From a virus, in IMG/VR virus record IMGVR_UViG_3300024346_001088: a stretch of 14,577 nucleotides of DNA, one strand, 5' to 3'. The stretch's first letter is position 1. Each line of letters starts with the position of its first letter. The notes below the pieces were generated by a model. It ran no database searches and was not told where the DNA came from. It saw only the letters and a list, made by a program, of their open reading frames with translations. This document shows, in pieces, positions 1 to 14,577 of the stretch. Position numbers and translations under genes: made by a program.

Positions 1-24
1 ATATGCAAACGAAATGCCCCCGAA
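1..24. repeat. Terminal direct repeat, copy 1 (identical to 14554-14577); signature of circular closure or terminal redundancy
   Basis: ATATGCAAACGAAATGCCCCCGAA occurs at 1-24 and again at 14554-14577 (checked base by base). Implied unit length is 14,553 bp. Confidence 0.9.
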
Positions 25-1468
25 CCCCATCCATCATTTTGTCGCCACCAGCCAAGATCAGCCTGAACCAGCGCCAACTGGCCATGACCAGCCGAGACTG
101 GAAACGATCATCCCAGATCATGCCGGCTCACTAGCTGGGCTTGTGGGGGACATGGCTAAGAAGGTGCTGCAGATTGATTTGATGCCTTGGCAAATACATG
201 CTCTTGAAGGGATGCTGGCGGTTGACGCTGATAACAAGTTTGTGCATCGCTCAAGCCTTGTTTCGGTCGCGCGTCAGAACGGTAAGACAACAATCATCCA
301 AGCGCTCATTCTGTTTTGGCTTGTGGAGATGCCCAAGATTCGAGGCGGTAAACAGACCGTCGTATCGGGCGCGCACCGATTGGATTTGGCGTGCTTGTTG
401 TTTGATGATTTGGCACCAATTCTTGAGGAGTACTACGGCGCAAAGATCGTCAAGTCGTACGGCCGTTATCAAGCGACAATGCCAGACGGCAGCAAGTGGT
501 GGGTCAAAGCTTTAAAGCCAAACCAAGGTCACGGCATGAGCATTGACCTAGTGATTGTTGACGAGTTGTTTGACGTCAACCCCGACTCGGTTGAAGGCGG
601 TTTGCTACCGGCACAGCGCGCACGAAAAAATCCGTTGGCGTGTTTCTTCTCTACCGCTGGCACGGAAGAATCGGTGCTGTTTCAGCGTTGGCGTGAGGCA
701 GGTATTCGAGCCATTGACAAAGGCGAACCGTCAACGATGTACATGGCCGAATGGTCGCCTGACCCGAGCCTTGACCCTTTGCATCCTGCGTCATGGGCGT
801 GGGGTAACCCTGCGCTTGGTCACACGTTGGACATGGACACCATTAGGCAAGAGTCAACGAACCCTGATCGCGCGTCGTTCTTGCGCGCATCCCTCAACCT
901 TTGGGTGAGTGTTGTTCGCGGTTGGATTGAGCCAGGGCGTTGGCCGTCCTTGGAATACACAGGGGACATCCCTAGCGGTGGCGTCGTGGCGATCGAGTCT
1001 TCGCTGGACGATTCCCGATATAGCGCGACTAGATGCGTTAACTTGTCGGACGGTCGGGTGCTTGTCACCGTCGCATTCATTGCCGAGTCAATCACAGAGC
1101 TGTGGGACAACGTGCAAGAACTCGCCAAAGACCCGACAATCAAATTTGCGTTGTCGCCGACCGTGGACGCAACCTGCCCACCAAACATTGAGCGCCGCCG
1201 AGTTGTCGTTGGTTATGCAGAACTTGGACGGTTTACACCGCTCGCCAAAAACATGATTGCCGAAGCGCGATTGTTACACACGGGAGAAAAACTGTTAGCC
1301 GAACATGTTCAGCGCGCGGTTGCGGTACGCACGGATAACACCATAGTTTTGTCCAGTAAACGGAGTCCAGGGCCTATTGAATTAGCGCGAACAATGGTCT
1401 GGGGAATTGGCATGTGTGCTCGTCCAATTAGCAGCGGAAAACCCATGCTTGTCTCGGTAAATAACTAA
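14..1468 (+). CDS. terL: Terminase large subunit (HK97/lambda-type ATPase-nuclease)
   Basis: 484-codon ORF with Walker A-like VARQNGKTT and Walker B-like DLVIVDELF, an LMPWQ..ALEGML N-terminal motif, and the portal gene directly downstream. ATG 14 has no SD and is in frame with the upstream HNH ORF once the ends are joined. An alternative internal start at ATG 152 (MAKKVLQ) follows GGGGGA at 145-150. Confidence 0.85.
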   Translation: MPPNPIHHFVATSQDQPEPAPTGHDQPRLETIIPDHAGSLAGLVGDMAKKVLQIDLMPWQIHALEGMLAVDADNKFVHRSSLVSVARQNGKTTIIQALILFWLVEMPKIRGGKQTVVSGAHRLDLACLLFDDLAPILEEYYGAKIVKSYGRYQATMPDGSKWWVKALKPNQGHGMSIDLVIVDELFDVNPDSVEGGLLPAQRARKNPLACFFSTAGTEESVLFQRWREAGIRAIDKGEPSTMYMAEWSPDPSLDPLHPASWAWGNPALGHTLDMDTIRQESTNPDRASFLRASLNLWVSVVRGWIEPGRWPSLEYTGDIPSGGVVAIESSLDDSRYSATRCVNLSDGRVLVTVAFIAESITELWDNVQELAKDPTIKFALSPTVDATCPPNIERRRVVVGYAELGRFTPLAKNMIAEARLLHTGEKLLAEHVQRAVAVRTDNTIVLSSKRSPGPIELARTMVWGIGMCARPISSGKPMLVSVNN

Positions 1469-1554: not shown

Positions 1555-2679
1555 ATGGCTTTATTCGGCAAACCAAAAACATCAGCAATTAGCGTCCCTG
1601 CAAAGGTGACAGCTGCGACTGGTTTTGCTCCTGGCTATTCGTCGTCAAATGTTGGCGTCAACATGATTGGCCAGTACTACACCTACCGCGAAGGTGAAGC
1701 GCGCAACCAAGCAATCAGCGTCCCAACAATTAACCGCGCGCGCGACCTTATGGCGTCAGTCATTGGCTCGATGCCATTGCGAATGTACAACGAAGTTTGG
1801 GATGCCAACGAAGAAGAAATGACAAAGGTTTATATTGAGCCACGTTCTTGGATTCGCAGACCAGACCCAAATGTAAGTTTTCAGTTTCTTATGTCATGGA
1901 CGCTGGACGATCTGATGATGTTCGGTCGGGCTTTCTGGTACATCACGGAGAGGTATGCTTCGGGCCATCCCGCTGCGTTTACTCGACTGCCTGCAGGCTC
2001 AATTACAACCACCGACATGGCTGGCCCCGTTTGGTTTGCTCCATCAAAGCAAGTGTATTTTCAAGGCGGAGAAATTGACCCAACAAACCTTGTGCAATTC
2101 TTGTCGCCCGCACAAGGTCTAATCTATTCTGCACCTGGCGCAATTGAAACCGCACTCAAATTAGAAGCTGCGCGCAATCGCAACGCATCGTCAAGCATTC
2201 CTGCCGGCATCTTGCGTCAGACCGAAAACTCAGAGCCCCTGGATGCACAAAGTCTCAGCGATTTGGCAGCCCAGTTCAATGCGGCGCGTGCCTCGAATCA
2301 AACTGCTGCTTTGAATCAGTACTTGACTTACACAGAAACAAACGCAACGCCTGACAAAATGTTGCTCATTGAAGCATCGCAATATCAATCTTTGGAAATG
2401 GCGCGCATTGCGAACGTGCCACCGTATTTGGTCGGCGTTGCTACTGGCGCTTACTCATACCAATCGTCGCAACAGGCGCGCGCAGACCTTTACTTGTTTG
2501 GCGTGAAGTTGTATGCCGATGCAATTGCTGGCGCTTTGTCAATGGACAACGTGCTACCGCGCGGTACATATGTCGAGTTTGATGCTGACGAATACCTAGA
2601 AGAAAACTTCATGGCCGACAGCATGGACGACCGAGAAACAGTTATAGAAGAAAACACACAAGAGGAGATTGCATCATGA
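1555..2679 (+). CDS. Portal protein (HK97 family)
   Basis: Sits between the terminase and the protease-capsid gene. Portal-like motifs: MPLRMYNE, RPDPNVSFQFLMSWTLDDLMMFGRAFWYI, LEMARIANVPPYLVG. ATG 1555 is preferred to the ORF-track GTG 1522 because AGTAGGA (1546-1552) lies just upstream. Confidence 0.8.
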   Translation: MALFGKPKTSAISVPAKVTAATGFAPGYSSSNVGVNMIGQYYTYREGEARNQAISVPTINRARDLMASVIGSMPLRMYNEVWDANEEEMTKVYIEPRSWIRRPDPNVSFQFLMSWTLDDLMMFGRAFWYITERYASGHPAAFTRLPAGSITTTDMAGPVWFAPSKQVYFQGGEIDPTNLVQFLSPAQGLIYSAPGAIETALKLEAARNRNASSSIPAGILRQTENSEPLDAQSLSDLAAQFNAARASNQTAALNQYLTYTETNATPDKMLLIEASQYQSLEMARIANVPPYLVGVATGAYSYQSSQQARADLYLFGVKLYADAIAGALSMDNVLPRGTYVEFDADEYLEENFMADSMDDRETVIEENTQEEIAS

Positions 2680-4271
2680 TCAAATTGATTGCAGGAGAAT
2701 TCACACTTGACGCCGCCAAAGGCGACGCACCACGACGCACGATCAGCGGAACCGCAGTTCCCTACAACGTGCCGGCAACAGTTTCGGACGGCACAGCTGT
2801 GATCTTCCGTCCAGGCTCATTGCCAATCGAGGGCAAAGCACCACGCCTGTTTATGTACCACGACGCAAGCATGCCAGTTGGTGTTGTGACCGAGCGCGTA
2901 GATACCGAACAGGGAATGATGTTTAGCGCCAAGATCAGCGCAACCAGCCTTGGCAACGACGCTTTGGTTATGGCTCAAGACGGCACAATTGATCAAGTTT
3001 CGGTTGGCGTAAATCCCGTCAAGTTCTCATACGACGAAGCAGGAACCATGATTATCGAAGCAGCGGATTGGACAGAGTTGTCACTCGTTCCGATCGGCGC
3101 ATTCGGTGACATGGCCAACATTGCCAGCGTCGCAGCGAGTATCCACCAAGAGCCAGAACAAGTAGTGTTAAATGAAGAAGTAGTCCCAGAACAGGAGATA
3201 GAACCCATGTCAGAAGTAACCGCACCAGCAGTTGAGGCAACAATCCCAACCGCGCCAATTTTTGCACAGGCTAAAAAAGAGTTTGTATTGCCAAGCGCTG
3301 GCGAATACATGGCCGCTTACCACATCGGTGGCGACACGTTCTCAAACATCAACAAGGCTGTTGCTGAATACACAGCATCAAAGAAGACCGCATTGCAGGC
3401 AGCTGCAGGTGACGTGCTTACCACCGATACACCTGGTCTTTTGCCAGTTCCAGTTCTTGGGCCATTGGTTCAAGACCTCAATTTCATTCGTCCAGTAGTC
3501 GAAGCATTGGGCGCACGCGCTTATCCAGACGGTGGTGCATCAAAGACGTTCATCCGTCCAACGATTACCACGCACACCAGCGTTGGTACGCAGTCGAGCG
3601 AATTGTCAGCTGCATCTGCAACAACCATGGTCATTGCTTCAAACTCAATCAGCAAGACCACGCTTGCCGGTCAAGTAACCCTGTCTGTACAGGACATTGA
3701 CTTCACCTCACCTGCAGCAATGCAGTTGATTTTGAACGACCTCATGGGCGAATACATGATTGCATCAGACAACTTCGCAGCAGACAACTTGCTTACCGCA
3801 GCAACATCGTCTGGCGTATGGGACTTGACCGTTGCAGACTTGCTCAAGTCGGTTTACGACTCCGCAGTTGACATCAGCAATGGTCGCAACTTCACACCAA
3901 CCCACATGTTCGTCAGCCCAGACGTATGGGGACAACTTGGACAGCTCGCAGACACAACTGGCCGTCCAGTATTCCCATTCATCGGCGCAGGCCTCACCGG
4001 TCAGAACGCACTCGGTGGTGGAAACGCAACATCATGGAACGGCAACCCGCTCGGTCTGCAATTAGTAGTTGACAGCAACTTCGCAGCCAAGACCATGATC
4101 ATCACCCGCGTAGGTCAAGGTTCAGGCGACGCATTCGAGTTCTACGAATCAATCCGTGGCTTGATGAGCGTTGAAGTACCTGCAACCCTTGGTCGCACAA
4201 TGTCATTCCACGGATACGTCAGCACCTTTGCTGCAATCGGTGGCATGATCCGCAAGATCACCCAGGCTTAG
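2676..4271 (+). CDS. Prohead (capsid maturation) protease fused to HK97-fold major capsid protein
   Basis: The N-terminal ~155 aa resemble the HK97 prohead protease family (S78/U35): ISGTAVPYN, MYHDASMPVG, DQVSVG. An acidic/Pro-rich linker follows. The C-terminal ~350 aa look like an HK97-type capsid protein (GLLPVPVLGPLV, SKTTLAGQVTLSVQDID, GNPLGLQLVVDSN). SD GAGGAG at 2662-2667; ATGA overlap with the portal stop. Confidence 0.8.
   Translation: MIKLIAGEFTLDAAKGDAPRRTISGTAVPYNVPATVSDGTAVIFRPGSLPIEGKAPRLFMYHDASMPVGVVTERVDTEQGMMFSAKISATSLGNDALVMAQDGTIDQVSVGVNPVKFSYDEAGTMIIEAADWTELSLVPIGAFGDMANIASVAASIHQEPEQVVLNEEVVPEQEIEPMSEVTAPAVEATIPTAPIFAQAKKEFVLPSAGEYMAAYHIGGDTFSNINKAVAEYTASKKTALQAAAGDVLTTDTPGLLPVPVLGPLVQDLNFIRPVVEALGARAYPDGGASKTFIRPTITTHTSVGTQSSELSAASATTMVIASNSISKTTLAGQVTLSVQDIDFTSPAAMQLILNDLMGEYMIASDNFAADNLLTAATSSGVWDLTVADLLKSVYDSAVDISNGRNFTPTHMFVSPDVWGQLGQLADTTGRPVFPFIGAGLTGQNALGGGNATSWNGNPLGLQLVVDSNFAAKTMIITRVGQGSGDAFEFYESIRGLMSVEVPATLGRTMSFHGYVSTFAAIGGMIRKITQA
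3207..4271 (+). CDS. Possible nested in-frame product: major capsid protein without the protease domain (354 aa)
   Basis: In-frame ATG at 3207 (codon 178 of the fusion) is preceded by AGGAG at 3193-3197 with a 9-nt spacer. It lies exactly at the protease/linker boundary. Confidence 0.4.
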   Translation: MSEVTAPAVEATIPTAPIFAQAKKEFVLPSAGEYMAAYHIGGDTFSNINKAVAEYTASKKTALQAAAGDVLTTDTPGLLPVPVLGPLVQDLNFIRPVVEALGARAYPDGGASKTFIRPTITTHTSVGTQSSELSAASATTMVIASNSISKTTLAGQVTLSVQDIDFTSPAAMQLILNDLMGEYMIASDNFAADNLLTAATSSGVWDLTVADLLKSVYDSAVDISNGRNFTPTHMFVSPDVWGQLGQLADTTGRPVFPFIGAGLTGQNALGGGNATSWNGNPLGLQLVVDSNFAAKTMIITRVGQGSGDAFEFYESIRGLMSVEVPATLGRTMSFHGYVSTFAAIGGMIRKITQA

Positions 4272-9859: not shown

Positions 9860-10179
9860 TTGATTACGCACTAATACTCAATGCCAATTATCCCGGCACA
9901 CAATGGTCGCTTGACGGCGAAACTTATGACGGTCTTACATGGTTAGACGAAACACCTAAACCATCGCAAGCCGAACTAGACGCTGCATGGCCTCAAGTTG
10001 ATTACAACAATCAAATTGCTGCCGTAGAAACTACCCGTCGCATACAATACGAAGCTCAATCAGACGGACTTTTCTTTGAATGGCAACGAGGAACAAACAC
10101 CAAAGAAGCATGGGAAGCAGCAGTTCAAGCAATCAAAGACGCAAACCCATACCCACCTGCACCAACTAAGAAAAAGTAG
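9856..10179 (+). CDS. XkdW-like small tail-associated protein (hypothetical)
   Basis: 107 aa with an ATGA overlap. The pattern WSLDGETYDGLTWLDETPKPSQAELDAAW resembles XkdW-type proteins, which are encoded next to tail-fibre genes. Confidence 0.35.
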   Translation: MIDYALILNANYPGTQWSLDGETYDGLTWLDETPKPSQAELDAAWPQVDYNNQIAAVETTRRIQYEAQSDGLFFEWQRGTNTKEAWEAAVQAIKDANPYPPAPTKKK

Positions 10180-10340
10180 TGCGCTGGCGTTACCTCATTG
10201 GCTACGGCGCGCTAATTGCAGTCGTTTTGTGGGGATGTTCTGGTTGCGCTGACCGTGAGCGAGTAAATTGCCAACGCGCAGGATCTAAAGCAGTAACCAT
10301 GACAAGCGACATACAGATCCGGACGGGACGCTGTGCCTAA
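10179..10340 (+). CDS. Small membrane or lipoprotein-like protein (53 aa; absent from the ORF track)
   Basis: The GTG start overlaps the upstream stop (TAGTG) and the 3' end overlaps the next gene by 8 nt. Translation: MRWRYLIGYGALIAVVLWGCSGCADRERVNCQRAGSKAVTMTSDIQIRTGRCA, i.e. a basic N-terminus, a hydrophobic helix and an L-W-G-C lipobox-like site. Confidence 0.4.
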   Translation: MRWRYLIGYGALIAVVLWGCSGCADRERVNCQRAGSKAVTMTSDIQIRTGRCA

Positions 10341-12283: not shown

Positions 12284-12532
12284 ATGGGTAGATCATTAAA
12301 CGGCGTTAACGCAATTGAAGAAGCAGAACGTCAAACACCAATAGAGATACTTAATTCCGAAAAAATAACTTTGACCGTTGTTGAAGTTGCAAAAGTGTTA
12401 AATGTTTCTAAAGGAACAATTTACAAAAACATTCGAGAAACTGGCTTTGCTGCAGAAGGTTTGCCAGCAATTCAAGTTTGTGGCTCGTATCGTGTATCAG
12501 CATTCTTGCTTCGTAAATGGCTTGGTTTGTAA
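12284..12532 (+). CDS. Helix-turn-helix DNA-binding protein (MerR/excisionase-type HTH)
   Basis: LTVVEVAKVLNVSKGTIYKNIRETG ... YRVSAFLLRKWL is the classic Xis/MerR-like HTH pattern. Strong SD AAGGAG at 12269-12274. Markedly AT-rich. Confidence 0.75.
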   Translation: MGRSLNGVNAIEEAERQTPIEILNSEKITLTVVEVAKVLNVSKGTIYKNIRETGFAAEGLPAIQVCGSYRVSAFLLRKWLGL

Positions 12533-13469: not shown

Positions 13470-13612
13470 CACTAGAAGAATTGATTACAAACATCGAGCG
13501 CCTGCAGGCCGTGTATAACAGCATGGTTGACCCTGAACAGCACGAAGCAAGGCAATACGTGCGTTGGGCAATCAAGCACCTTGCAGACAAGACGTACATG
13601 GCTGCGCTGTAA
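13466..13612 (+). CDS. Hypothetical 48-aa helical protein (absent from the ORF track)
   Basis: ATGA overlap upstream and TAATG overlap downstream. Translation: MTLEELITNIERLQAVYNSMVDPEQHEARQYVRWAIKHLADKTYMAAL. Confidence 0.5.
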   Translation: MTLEELITNIERLQAVYNSMVDPEQHEARQYVRWAIKHLADKTYMAAL

Positions 13613-13956
13613 TGAAACTTGACCCAAAGATCAGCGAAGCCGACTTCAAGGATGTCGTGATTAGCATTGCCAAGCGTTACGGCTGGCTGATTCACCATGA
13701 TCTGCCGGCACAAAATAGTCGAGGGCGCTGGGCTACACATGTGCAGGGTGATGTGGGTTTTCCTGATTTGTTCATGGTGCACCCATTCCAAGGCGGTCGG
13801 CCGTTGGTCATTGAGTTGAAGGCAGAAAAGGGCAAGACAACACCTGGGCAAAAGGTTTGGTTGAAAGCGTGTGAGTTGGCTGGATGTCATGCAGCGGTAT
13901 GGAAACCAAGTGACATGGAGTACATTCTCTACACCTTGAGCAACCCAAGAATGTAA
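13612..13956 (+). CDS. VRR-NUC domain nuclease (PD-(D/E)xK fold)
   Basis: GFPDLFMV ... LVIELKAEKGKTTPGQKVWL ... AGCHAAVW matches the VRR-NUC D...ExK core followed by the Q..W motif. ATG 13612 is preferred to the track start at 13564 because of the TAATG coupling. Confidence 0.8.
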   Translation: MKLDPKISEADFKDVVISIAKRYGWLIHHDLPAQNSRGRWATHVQGDVGFPDLFMVHPFQGGRPLVIELKAEKGKTTPGQKVWLKACELAGCHAAVWKPSDMEYILYTLSNPRM

Positions 13957-13969
13957 ACAATCGGCTAGT
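13953..13969 (+). repeat. Imperfect direct repeat, copy A (GTAAACA-ATCGGCT-AGT)
   Basis: Matches 14083-14102 (GTAAACAtaATCGGCTtAGT) apart from two small insertions. In both copies the TAA is a stop codon. Confidence 0.6.
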
Positions 13970-14082
13970 AGCACGACCTAAGCCATTCGCACGGCAGTTG
14001 GTGACACACGGAAACGTGGGTAGATCGGCGCGCCCCGAATCATGCAAGACGAAATGAAACGGGCAAAGCGTCGAGGCGAGCC

Positions 14083-14102
14083 GTAAACATAATCGGCTTA
14101 GT
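14083..14102 (+). repeat. Imperfect direct repeat, copy B
   Basis: See copy A; the copies are spaced ~130 bp apart. Confidence 0.6.
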
Positions 14103-14204
14103 GAGTGCAAAGGGAACCAGGTTGGGCAATCTGGTGGGTGGAGCATTCACACATCTCTTGACCTGCCAGATGACATACAGTTAACAAACAAAGAAAGCAC
14201 CGAC

Positions 14205-14291
14205 ATGAACCCGACAACAAACACAACTCACATCAACCGAGGACAAGGCGCGCAAGCGCCGCGTCAGCGCAAGCGAAGCGCGCGAGCATGA
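14205..14291 (+). CDS. Possible 28-codon upstream ORF / leader peptide coupled to the HNH start
   Basis: Translation: MNPTTNTTHINRGQGAQAPRQRKRSARA. Its stop TGA (14289-14291) overlaps the HNH ATG (14288-14290) as ATGA, the same coupling device used elsewhere in the genome. The SD is weak. Confidence 0.25.
   Translation: MNPTTNTTHINRGQGAQAPRQRKRSARA
14247..14260 (+). promoter_or_regulatory. GC hairpin with GNRA-type loop (GGCGC-GCAA-GCGCC) in the leader of the HNH-terminase gene
   Basis: 5 G:C pairs and a GCAA loop. GCGCAAGCG recurs at 14250-14258 and 14267-14275. A second GCGC/GCGC stem lies at 14267-14281, just before the start codon. Confidence 0.3.
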
Positions 14292-14577
14292 CACGCAAAC
14301 TAACCGAACACGACACAGCGATTTACAAACAGGCACGCGCTGAACTCCTGCGCGACCAACCGTTATGTCATTGGTGCAAGAAGAATCCTGCTTGCGAGTT
14401 AGATCATCTCGTTGAGAGTGACAAAGGTGGCACGCTCGAAGATGGCTACGTCGCAGCATGCAAGAGTTGCAACTCTGCAAGAGGGGCGTCTTATCGCAAT
14501 CGCAAACTCGCAAACGCAAAACAAAATCGCGAGAAAGCAATTAACGATTTTTTATATGCAAACGAAATGCCCCCGAA
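14288..14577 (+). CDS. HNH endonuclease (open at the window end; continues in frame into terL after circular closure)
   Basis: Translation: MTRKLTEHDTAIYKQARAELLRDQPLCHWCKKNPACELDHLVESDKGGTLEDGYVAACKSCNSARGASYRNRKLANAKQNREKAINDFLYANEMPP. It has the CxxC ... DH ... CxxCN beta-beta-alpha-Me signature. No stop codon occurs before 14577. No ATG, GTG or TTG is available upstream in this frame back to TGA 14171-14173. Confidence 0.85.
   Translation, partial: MTRKLTEHDTAIYKQARAELLRDQPLCHWCKKNPACELDHLVESDKGGTLEDGYVAACKSCNSARGASYRNRKLANAKQNREKAINDFLYANEMPP
14554..14577. repeat. Terminal direct repeat, copy 2 (identical to 1-24)
   Basis: Same 24-mer as the window start. It lies inside the open reading frame that links HNH to the terminase. 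Confidence 0.9.

Follow-up and report, generated by a model that had tools for sequence, protein, structure and literature searches.

Can the enzyme that packages the DNA of a cos phage be a single protein, and can the site that it cuts lie within the very gene that encodes it? The question is raised by a viral record of IMG/VR, IMGVR_UViG_3300024346_001088, a stretch of 14,577 nt with 51% G+C that we call, in its full length, the window. Near its right end an open reading frame (ORF) for an HNH endonuclease begins and runs off the sequence without a stop; at its left end the frame of a large terminase subunit (TerL) is already open. When the ends are joined, the two become one gene. We consider it likely that the window represents the complete genome of a small HK97-like siphovirus from an uncultured family, that the packaging enzyme of this virus is a single HNH-TerL chain, and that the cohesive-end site (cos) lies inside the gene of that enzyme. 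Here we present the evidence for the gene, for the site, and for their connection, along with the alternatives.

The HNH-TerL reading frame

The first 24 nt of the window are identical to the last 24 (ATATGCAAACGAAATGCCCCCGAA), an exact match as the initial annotation had it, and a longer terminal repeat is absent. Because of this match the window closes as a circle of 14,553 bp, nt 14554-14577 being a duplicate of nt 1-24. ATG 14288 is the earliest start codon past the upstream in-frame stop, which ends at 14173. The frame that it opens carries the HNH motif, is open to the end of the window and, when followed on the circle, continues uninterrupted to a stop at 1466-1468. The product is 577 aa long, as had been predicted for an HNH-linker-TerL protein. 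ATG 14567, which is the same base as ATG 14 and lies 93 codons past 14288, is codon 94 of this frame. The parts of the gene are:

14288..14577, + strand: 5′ part of the fusion ORF, encoding the HNH domain (residues 1-89, nt 14288-14554) and then the first linker residues
1..1468, + strand: 3′ part of the fusion ORF, encoding the remainder of the linker, the TerL ATPase and the RNase H-like nuclease; stop at 1466-1468
14366..14473, + strand: HNH catalytic and zinc-binding motif (CHWC 14366-14377, DH 14402-14407, CKSCN 14459-14473)
14438-14446: glycine-substituted site of the HNH motif, residues 51-53 (DGY); zinc-binding and catalytic residues still invariant
92..106, + strand: PRLET beta-strand element at the TerL N-terminus; P120 and R121 invariant (alignment and structure model)
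185..667, + strand: ATPase motifs (Q motif PWQ 185-193, Walker A RQNGKT 272-289, Walker B DE 560-565, C-motif STAGTE 650-667)
995..1381, + strand: putative acidic triad of the TerL nuclease (E421 995-997, D478 1166-1168, E549 1379-1381; alignment)
Across the HNH-TerL junction: predicted spanning tryptic peptide AINDFLYANEMPPNPIHHFVATSQDQPEPAPTGHDQPR

The gene is not peculiar to the window. No stop or frameshift breaks the junction, and the uninterrupted gene is seen in many contigs from other samples, which rules out an assembly artefact or a frameshift as the source of the fusion. A search of 5.8 billion proteins returned 555 homologues, most of them 573-593 aa long, with 97-100% query cover and 48-94% identity. 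Many carry the Pfam HNH and TerL_nuclease domains together, on contigs where the gene lies away from the contig end. When 1.84 billion cluster representatives were searched with a profile, 316 reached E ≤1e-30; of the 150 best (50%-identity clusters), about 40 are fusions in full length, of 555-747 aa. Hundreds of metagenomic homologues of 48-97% identity, as well as structural matches with as little as 20%, are single ORFs of 555-747 aa, with the HNH N-terminal and an HK97-type TerL after it. The HNH is free-standing in none of the 94 fetched loci that hold both domains; in all of them it shares one ORF with TerL. When predicted viral structures (BFVD) were searched with Foldseek, the top matches were also fused, at 36%, 29%, and 20% identity. 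Fused entries from uncultured Caudovirales are present in UniProt (A0A6J5QKN4, or CAB4180194.1; A0A6J5T5X6; A0A6J5RK67; A0A6J5QUV0). A0A6J5QKN4 belongs to the family, and the entries as a set are members or structural relatives; they are labeled only 'HNHc domain containing protein' or 'Terminase large subunit'.

Shorter homologues of 418-512 aa were considered as unfused TerL proteins and rejected: they are downstream-start calls (L001, L003), truncations at contig starts (L170-L173), or carry assembly junk at the start (P0181). The 512-aa P0118 is a second gene call within a 593-aa ORF, and the 503-aa P0096 has the HNH in frame upstream with no stop between. At the other extreme of length stand two distant members, P0165 (637 aa) and P0183 (747 aa), with linkers of 110-270 residues. 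One linker, of about 110 residues, is rich in Pro, Thr, Lys, and Arg; the other, of about 270, includes a Cys-rich, zinc-ribbon-like segment. Each protein is still encoded by one ORF. Among the assemblies, a contig of 26,422 nt (L162/L163; JGI 3300036770 Ga0310126_0002890) comprises about 1.9 genome copies in tandem and two intact fusion genes, a concatemer-like assembly that reads through cos.

Is the frame at the junction open by chance? Over the 150 nt around the junction in 46 dereplicated related lineages, the coding frame is open in 45, and the other two frames contain stops, each in 44 of the 46. In the remaining lineage a conserved DNA motif, discussed below, stands in another codon phase and the ORF is still intact. 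The pattern points clearly to selection for the open frame rather than to chance, and on such sequence evidence we take the fusion to be real and conserved across a large and diverse family. No close cultured relative was found: when 50,697 phage records were searched by tblastn with the fusion, the matches were to TerL only, at 26-28% identity, and no record covered ≥80%; the HNH and linker portion alone had zero matches.

The HNH domain has CHWC at residues 27-30, DH at 39-40, and CKSCN at 58-62; its final metal ligand is Asn, making the motif HNN-type. In 27 sequences of 48-88% identity, the four zinc-site cysteines (among them C27, C30, and C61), D39, H40, and N62 are invariant. The Pfam HNH match is weak (residues 27-66, E 0.008, under the gathering threshold). 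PHROG HNH families match down to E 9e-9, and the two collections place the domain at about residues 11-82. Profile comparison gives matches to the solved HNH endonucleases 4h9d (E 1e-8) and 5h0m. In a model of the whole fusion made with AlphaFold2 (AF2), the domain forms a beta-beta-alpha core, after which comes a long basic helix (residues 59-89). The core features of packaging HNHs, a beta-beta-alpha-metal fold with a catalytic His and zinc ligands, are thus recognizable in the sequence, and so is their genomic context: the domain is encoded directly 5′ of the inferred cos and TerL, in a genome that has a PF04860 portal and an S78 protease-capsid fusion.

The terminase large subunit family phrog_9 matches residues 86-566 with E 1e-50; Pfam and PHROG place the ATPase at about 172-313 and the nuclease at about 446-556, the Pfam TerL_nuclease match (E 4e-7) being above cut-off. 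The PWQ, RQNGKT, DE, and STAGTE motifs are invariant or almost so in the alignment, which is the signature of an ASCE ATPase. The AF2 model has a mean predicted local distance difference test score (pLDDT) of 83 and a predicted template modeling score of 0.70, with a confident TerL fold from about residue 120. Its best Foldseek match in the PDB is the TerL of HK97 (gp2; 6z6d, E 6e-22), and hhalign aligns the TerL part with the terminase of Arthrobacter phage Decurro at a probability of 99.4. The catalytic residues of HK97 TerL are D302, D388, and D471 (PMC9410871). The GRID motif of HK97 aligns with GPIE in the window TerL, and E421, D478, and E549, which align with these three residues, form a putative HK97-like nuclease triad: E421 never varies, 478 is occupied by D or E, and at least 90% of the aligned sequences carry E549. 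HK97 TerL also has an additional beta-strand that packs on the nuclease hairpin and is absent in pac-type terminases (PMC9410871); the PRLET strand may be its counterpart. The initial reading of the gene as a single HNH-linker-TerL unit of the HK97 type is thus supported by the conserved single ORF, the structural match to HK97 gp2, and the homology to packaging HNHs.

The linker between the modules is shorter than first thought. It had been put at about 45 residues, and of these only about 25 (residues 91-115, pLDDT <50) are predicted to be disordered; the rest is a folded and conserved N-terminal element of TerL, QPExAxxGHDQPRLET. In the alignment the length of the linker varies in whole codons only. 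Its richness in proline is partly dictated by the DNA of cos, where CCC CCG AAC CCC is read as PPNP.

Does one frame also mean one chain? Conservation of the frame suggests that it does. It is also conceivable, and we would call it unlikely rather than negligible, that the two proteins share an ORF and work apart: the linker would be cut by a protease, for example that of the prohead (S78) or one of the host, or TerL would be started internally, and the fusion would serve to express both in equal amounts from a compact genome. HNH and TerL are separate in all studied systems (PMC13595911), the genome already has a processed polyprotein in its protease-capsid fusion (PMC7302621), and in the model the linker at 91-115 is disordered and apparently exposed. 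For internal initiation there is a GGGGGA ahead of Met139 in the window phage. The initial annotation had accordingly allowed for nested products from ATG 14 and ATG 152, but the codons concerned, Met94 and Met139, are unconserved across the family, no conserved internal start was found among the relatives, and a start at Met139 would drop the PRLET element. Since Met94 and Met139 are unconserved, there is no conserved route to a stand-alone TerL. Nor does the linker show an evident conserved protease site; its sequence is for the most part determined by cos DNA. The variants with linkers of 110-270 residues keep one ORF, which shows that co-translation is selected, while being compatible with later cleavage.

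The inferred cos site and the genome ends

Where does the linear genome end? At least 35 independent metagenome contigs begin or stop at two positions 11 nt apart, 18/19 and 29/30. Starts at the equivalent of position 30 are found in 23 IMG/VR contigs, 18 from the clade of the window (TCCATCATTTTG...) and 5, at the homologous nucleotide, from a clade of 66% identity. Seven more contigs start 11 nt upstream, at 19 (CCCGAGCCCCA). Stops fall exactly at 18 (...GATGCC) in 12 contigs, within 1 nt of 18 in 3, and at 29 in 1. A single contig of 14,496 nt (L037, L113) has both boundaries, with 19 as its first position and 18 as its last. A common start nucleotide is also seen in a distant clade, in three contigs that come from three samples and whose TerL frame is open to the contig end. 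Because the same two nucleotides recur in clades whose flanks differ, we infer that they are physical termini and not graph breaks, and that the genome ends lie inside the fusion gene at 18/19 and 29/30.

It had been thought that genome ends at the closure point would keep the two ORFs from ever being contiguous. The ends do appear to lie there, yet the fusion survives: cohesive ends rejoin after injection, many contigs read through the site, and the frame is clearly selected. The 24-nt repeat itself was considered as the cohesive end or a direct terminal repeat and dismissed. It is an assembly overlap, since the recurrent contig ends flank an 11-mer that overlaps the repeat only partly. This 11-mer is CCCGA(A/G)CCCCA. 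The elements of the site are (no strand is assigned to them):

19..29: inferred cos core CCCGAACCCCA; putative nicks at 18/19 and 29/30, on opposite strands; within linker codons 95-99 (PPNPI)
14546..14556: T-tract GATTTTTTATA, about 16-26 nt upstream of the first nick; encodes DFLY; frequency ≥0.9 across lineages
59..73: conserved CAGCCTGAACCAGCG; encodes QPEPA; nucleotide-level conservation across clades, most third codon positions included

The core appears to be constrained as DNA. Its frequency is ≥0.9 at all positions, third codon positions included, and the adjacent codons vary freely, as do the approximately 14 nt between the T-tract and cos. The lineage with the shifted codon phase is telling. 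At L164:4247-5989 (P0056 clade), around CATAGCCCCCGAGCCCCTCGC, a cos-like motif CCCCCGAGCCCC encodes SPRAPR, as against PPSPI elsewhere. Because the motif is kept there in another phase and with a different peptide, the comparison of sequences gives direct evidence that the DNA, not the peptide, is under constraint. The element at 59-73, with the consensus CAGCCTGAAC(C/T)(A/G)GCG, is a candidate for a terminase-binding element downstream of cos. A partial second copy of the core is present at nt 14572-14577.

Most contigs lack the 11-mer at both ends, as is predicted if end repair removes a 3′ overhang. The overhang is therefore most likely an 11-nt 3′ overhang with the sequence of the 11-mer.

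Could the recurrent ends be artefacts after all? Graph breaks at a hypervariable or low-coverage spot might mimic termini, in which case the true ends would lie elsewhere or be permuted, and the gene would never be split. The segments beside the 11-mer are indeed hypervariable between strains, some contigs are chimeric there (L039, L089), and many assemblies close as circles or concatemers across the site. However, breaks that arise from strain variation would be spread out according to k-mer size and would not keep hitting two nucleotides 11 nt apart in clades with different flanks. Moreover, the missing 11-mer matches the overhang-type ends of cultured relatives that have the same flank layout, and an HK97-type TerL with a packaging HNH is a hallmark of cos phages (PMC3592412, PMC9410871). 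We consider artefactual ends quite improbable. As to the chimeras, in L089 (the 3′ end of IMGVR_UViG_3300007734_000782) the right end of one strain runs into the left end of another clade, and in L039:1-660 the left end is joined to unrelated sequence. Both fit the joining, during assembly, of free ends or of annealed cohesive ends from co-occurring strains.

That the N-terminal HNH is a selfish homing endonuclease with no role in packaging is most improbable: such free-standing enzymes are frequent in phages and often found near terminase genes (PMC10448857), but a mobile element would be sporadic, whereas this HNH holds a constant position with invariant zinc and catalytic residues in a family spanning 20-97% identity, abuts cos as packaging HNH genes do, and shares ancestry with the HNH that Decurro encodes next to cos (hhalign probability 96.4).

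Genome context and a model for packaging

All genes of the window are on the + strand. The HNH-TerL gene is followed by those for the portal (PF04860), an S78 protease-major capsid fusion, a head-tail connector, the major tail protein, the tape measure, and tail proteins. Then come an ORF resembling M15 peptidases (a weak match, E 0.0046, under the Pfam cut-off), a lysozyme-like SLT protein, an 82-aa HTH_17 protein, two proteins of unknown function, a VRR-NUC nuclease, and a non-coding region. An integrase was not found in the genome, nor were Rfam families or tRNAs in the window. The features relevant here are:

2676-4271, + strand: S78 prohead protease-major capsid fusion, 531 aa (phrog_2263, E 2e-87)
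12284-12532, + strand: HTH_17 (MerR/excisionase-like) protein, 82 aa (phrog_2538, small terminase, E 0.0098)
13564-13956, + strand: VRR-NUC nuclease
13957..14287, + strand: non-coding region between VRR-NUC and the fusion ORF, 331 nt

The 331-nt region is probably the site of the promoter or leader for the packaging and structural operon; a role in binding terminase is also conceivable. In all four relatives compared (L001, L003, L162, L164), the fusion gene is preceded by a gap of about 270-400 nt, and in two of them VRR-NUC is the preceding gene. Alignment of these regions (L001:1364-1640, L164:3917-4250, L003:333-675, L162:9602-10004) revealed blocks shared across clades: GACCTAAGCC, CAGTTGGTGACAC, GGGTAGA, GGGGCAT, and AACAAAC. 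A GC hairpin at about 14247-14260 (GGCGC-GCAA-GCGCC) has the counterpart CCGC-GCNA-GCGG in L164 and L003. The consensus fold of the region is weak, and no convincing sigma-70 promoter or terminator was found in it. An ORF of 28 codons at 14206-14292 (MNPTTNTTHINRGQGAQAPRQRKRSARA) overlaps the HNH start by ATGA and is kept in close relatives. It was considered as a conserved gene and set aside: its start is ATA or CTG in L001 and L003 when the alignment is read by eye, so it is probably not a conserved coding ORF. A DNA motif, GAAC(C/A)CGACA, is conserved in the same stretch.

How is cos recognized in such a genome? The small terminase subunit (TerS), an oligomeric DNA-binding protein that is encoded beside terL and recognizes cos or pac, would be the obvious candidate, and the initial annotation had noted that no TerS-like gene was to be seen. 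None is recognizable. No ORF separates cos from TerL. When 21 of the 22 other main + strand ORFs (all save the 53-aa ORF 10179-10340) were scanned with Pfam and PHROG, the sole match to a TerS family was the marginal one to phrog_2538 (E 0.0098). If a TerS is hidden in the genome, the protein so matched, the HTH_17 protein, is the one candidate for it, though a weak one.

These elements can be assembled into a model. The enzyme would consist of a gp74-type HNH (residues 1-89), a disordered tether of about 25 residues, the TerL ATPase, and the RNase H-like TerL nuclease. With cos in the tether-coding DNA, virion DNA would carry the HNH half of the gene at its right end and the TerL half at its left end. 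After injection, the cohesive ends would anneal and be ligated, making the gene whole again. The late transcript, and the ribosome on it, would cross cos, so that expression would be from circular or concatemeric DNA. The enzyme would then cut concatemers at cos, that is, within its own gene. Because the core is non-palindromic, we picture two active sites making one nick each: the HNH and TerL nucleases would nick one strand apiece about one helical turn apart, the tether allowing the HNH to reach its site. Such a one-nick-each model has been proposed for free-standing HNH and TerL proteins (PMC12967558). The fusion would be a covalent version of the gp74-TerL partnership of HK97, in which the tether removes the dependence on concentration. 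Recognition of cos might be due to the HNH with its basic helix, to the conserved flanking DNA elements, or to a small DNA-binding protein such as the HTH_17 protein.

A bolder form of the model dispenses with TerS altogether. Here the HNH and its basic helix would have taken over both cos recognition and one of the nicks, giving a cos terminase in a single polypeptide whose own gene is split at each packaging event and rebuilt when the ends are joined. We regard this form as possible but doubtful.

Several observations weigh against the single-chain enzyme with an internal cos. The integrity of the 577-aa chain is deduced from conservation, and post-translational cleavage of the linker would give separate proteins. 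A divergent TerS could hide among the small ORFs, the HTH_17 protein for example. The putative acids of the TerL nuclease are E/D/E, not D/D/D, and were placed by alignment. In the HNH motif, the middle Asn (consensus DNLV) is replaced by Gly in the subclade of the window (EDGYV, ADGLV, DEGYV). Because of this replacement, and of the Pfam match below the gathering threshold, HNH activity is less certain in the window phage. The positions of the genome ends come indirectly, from contig termini, and the polarity of the overhang from the majority of contigs that are trimmed at both ends and from analogy to the cluster EE phages described below. A minority of contigs keep the 11-mer at one end, unlike what simple removal of a 3′ overhang would give. 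Six contigs (L020, L038, L064, L065, L080, L082) start with 1-8 non-native, purine-rich bases before the 11-mer (GGGGGA, GGAGGA, GGAGAAA, GAAG, AGAAGTGA), which could be a library or assembly artefact at single-stranded ends.

What would such an enzyme teach us? The role of the HNH in cos packaging is unsettled, including whether the HNH nicks one strand and TerL the other. A natural and widespread single-chain HNH-TerL would permit a direct test, offering one protein with separable active sites (H40 versus E421 and E549) and a short, asymmetric cos core with predicted nicks. A complete cos packaging enzyme may function without a recognizable TerS. An essential coding sequence can, it appears, harbor cos, which places peptide and DNA signal under joint constraint. 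If the TerS-free form of the model were true, terminase would be made only from joined DNA, a built-in link between the supply of substrate and that of enzyme. There is also a practical lesson. Gene callers and linear records split or truncate the fusion gene, and hundreds of database entries are truncated 'terminase' fragments.

Comparison with known packaging systems

Full-text searches of the literature brought up neither an HNH-TerL fusion nor a cos site within a gene, and a review of July 2026 still treats gp74 as a separate accessory factor. The HNH-TerL fusion with an internal cos thus appears not to have been described before, its proteins sitting in databases without comment.

The closest paradigm is HK97. 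It too is a cos phage with an HK97-type TerL, a portal, protease, and capsid of the same type, and a small beta-beta-alpha-metal HNH next to the terminase on the circular map. Its 3′ overhang, given as 10 nt at one place in PMC9410871 and as 12 nt at another, is similar in length to the 11 nt inferred here. HK97 gp74 binds TerL and stimulates cos cleavage, being essential in vivo and only stimulatory in vitro (PMC9410871, PMC13595911). The differences are that in HK97 gp74 is a separate protein, TerS (gp1) is encoded between cos and terL, and cos is intergenic, whereas here HNH and TerL form one ORF, TerS is undetected, and cos is within the ORF.

Other packaging HNHs are those of Geobacillus phage GVE2 (5h0m), Staphylococcus phi12/SaPIbov5, the lactococcal Skunavirus (HrdP), and Bacillus phage gamma (N.phiGamma). 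These nucleases or nickases are encoded beside cos and the terminase genes and are needed for efficient cos processing (PMC3592412, PMC12967558). Unlike the HNH of the window, they are free-standing and act with TerS and TerL; none has been reported as a domain of TerL.

The nearest cultured matches to the TerL and capsid, at 26-33% identity, are from phages of Arthrobacter, Microbacterium, Mycobacterium, Gordonia, and Curtobacterium. From these affinities and the G+C content, our guess is that the host belongs to the freshwater Actinobacteria. The window has the gene layout of small-genome actinophages, of which protease-capsid fusions are reported to be typical (PMC7302621). Three of these phages are particularly instructive: BonaeVitae (Microbacterium cluster EE), Decurro (Arthrobacter cluster AN), and Root (Curtobacterium; L166, PQ868947.1). 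Their genomes are of the same small type, 15-17 kb, with a protease-capsid fusion and an HNH at the right end, and their terminase records show only a 'terminase' annotated. They share with the window family a layout of the ends, namely a T-tract, a C-rich ACCCCGC(G)CC.. stretch, then TC.TTTT:

BonaeVitae: ...GACACCCCGCCCCA / GTCTTCATTTTCACC
Decurro: ...GCGTTTTTTAAGTAG...GACACCCCGCGCCACC / CCGATCTTTTTT
Window family: GATTTTTTATA...GCCCCCGAGCCCCA / TCCATCATTTTG

Cluster EE phages have 3′ single-stranded overhangs (PMC9670927, PMC9671004). The HNH is the last gene, ending 67 nt before the right end in BonaeVitae and 27 nt before it in Decurro, where the T-tract lies just before the right end and the ORF ends in ...AFFK*. 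In keeping with the match to Decurro given above, the fusion HNH is, by sequence comparison, homologous to the cos-adjacent packaging HNHs of small actinophages. In EE and AN phages, 2-3 small ORFs lie between cos and the terminase gene; those of Decurro, BonaeVitae, and Root are of 'unknown function' in PHROGs. In the window family, in contrast, these ORFs are absent and the frame continues into TerL; the TerL identity to these phages is about 26-28%.

Root falls in between. It has an unannotated HNH ORF, at about 14838-15138 joined to 1-102, with no stop before the right end; the ORF continues for 34 codons from the left end and terminates right at gene 1. It looks like an HNH gene that spans cos and that escaped annotation because of the linear form of the record. 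Judged from these sequences, the phages form a series: the HNH ORF stops before cos in Decurro and BonaeVitae, crosses cos in Root, and in the window family crosses cos and enters TerL, the small ORFs having been lost.

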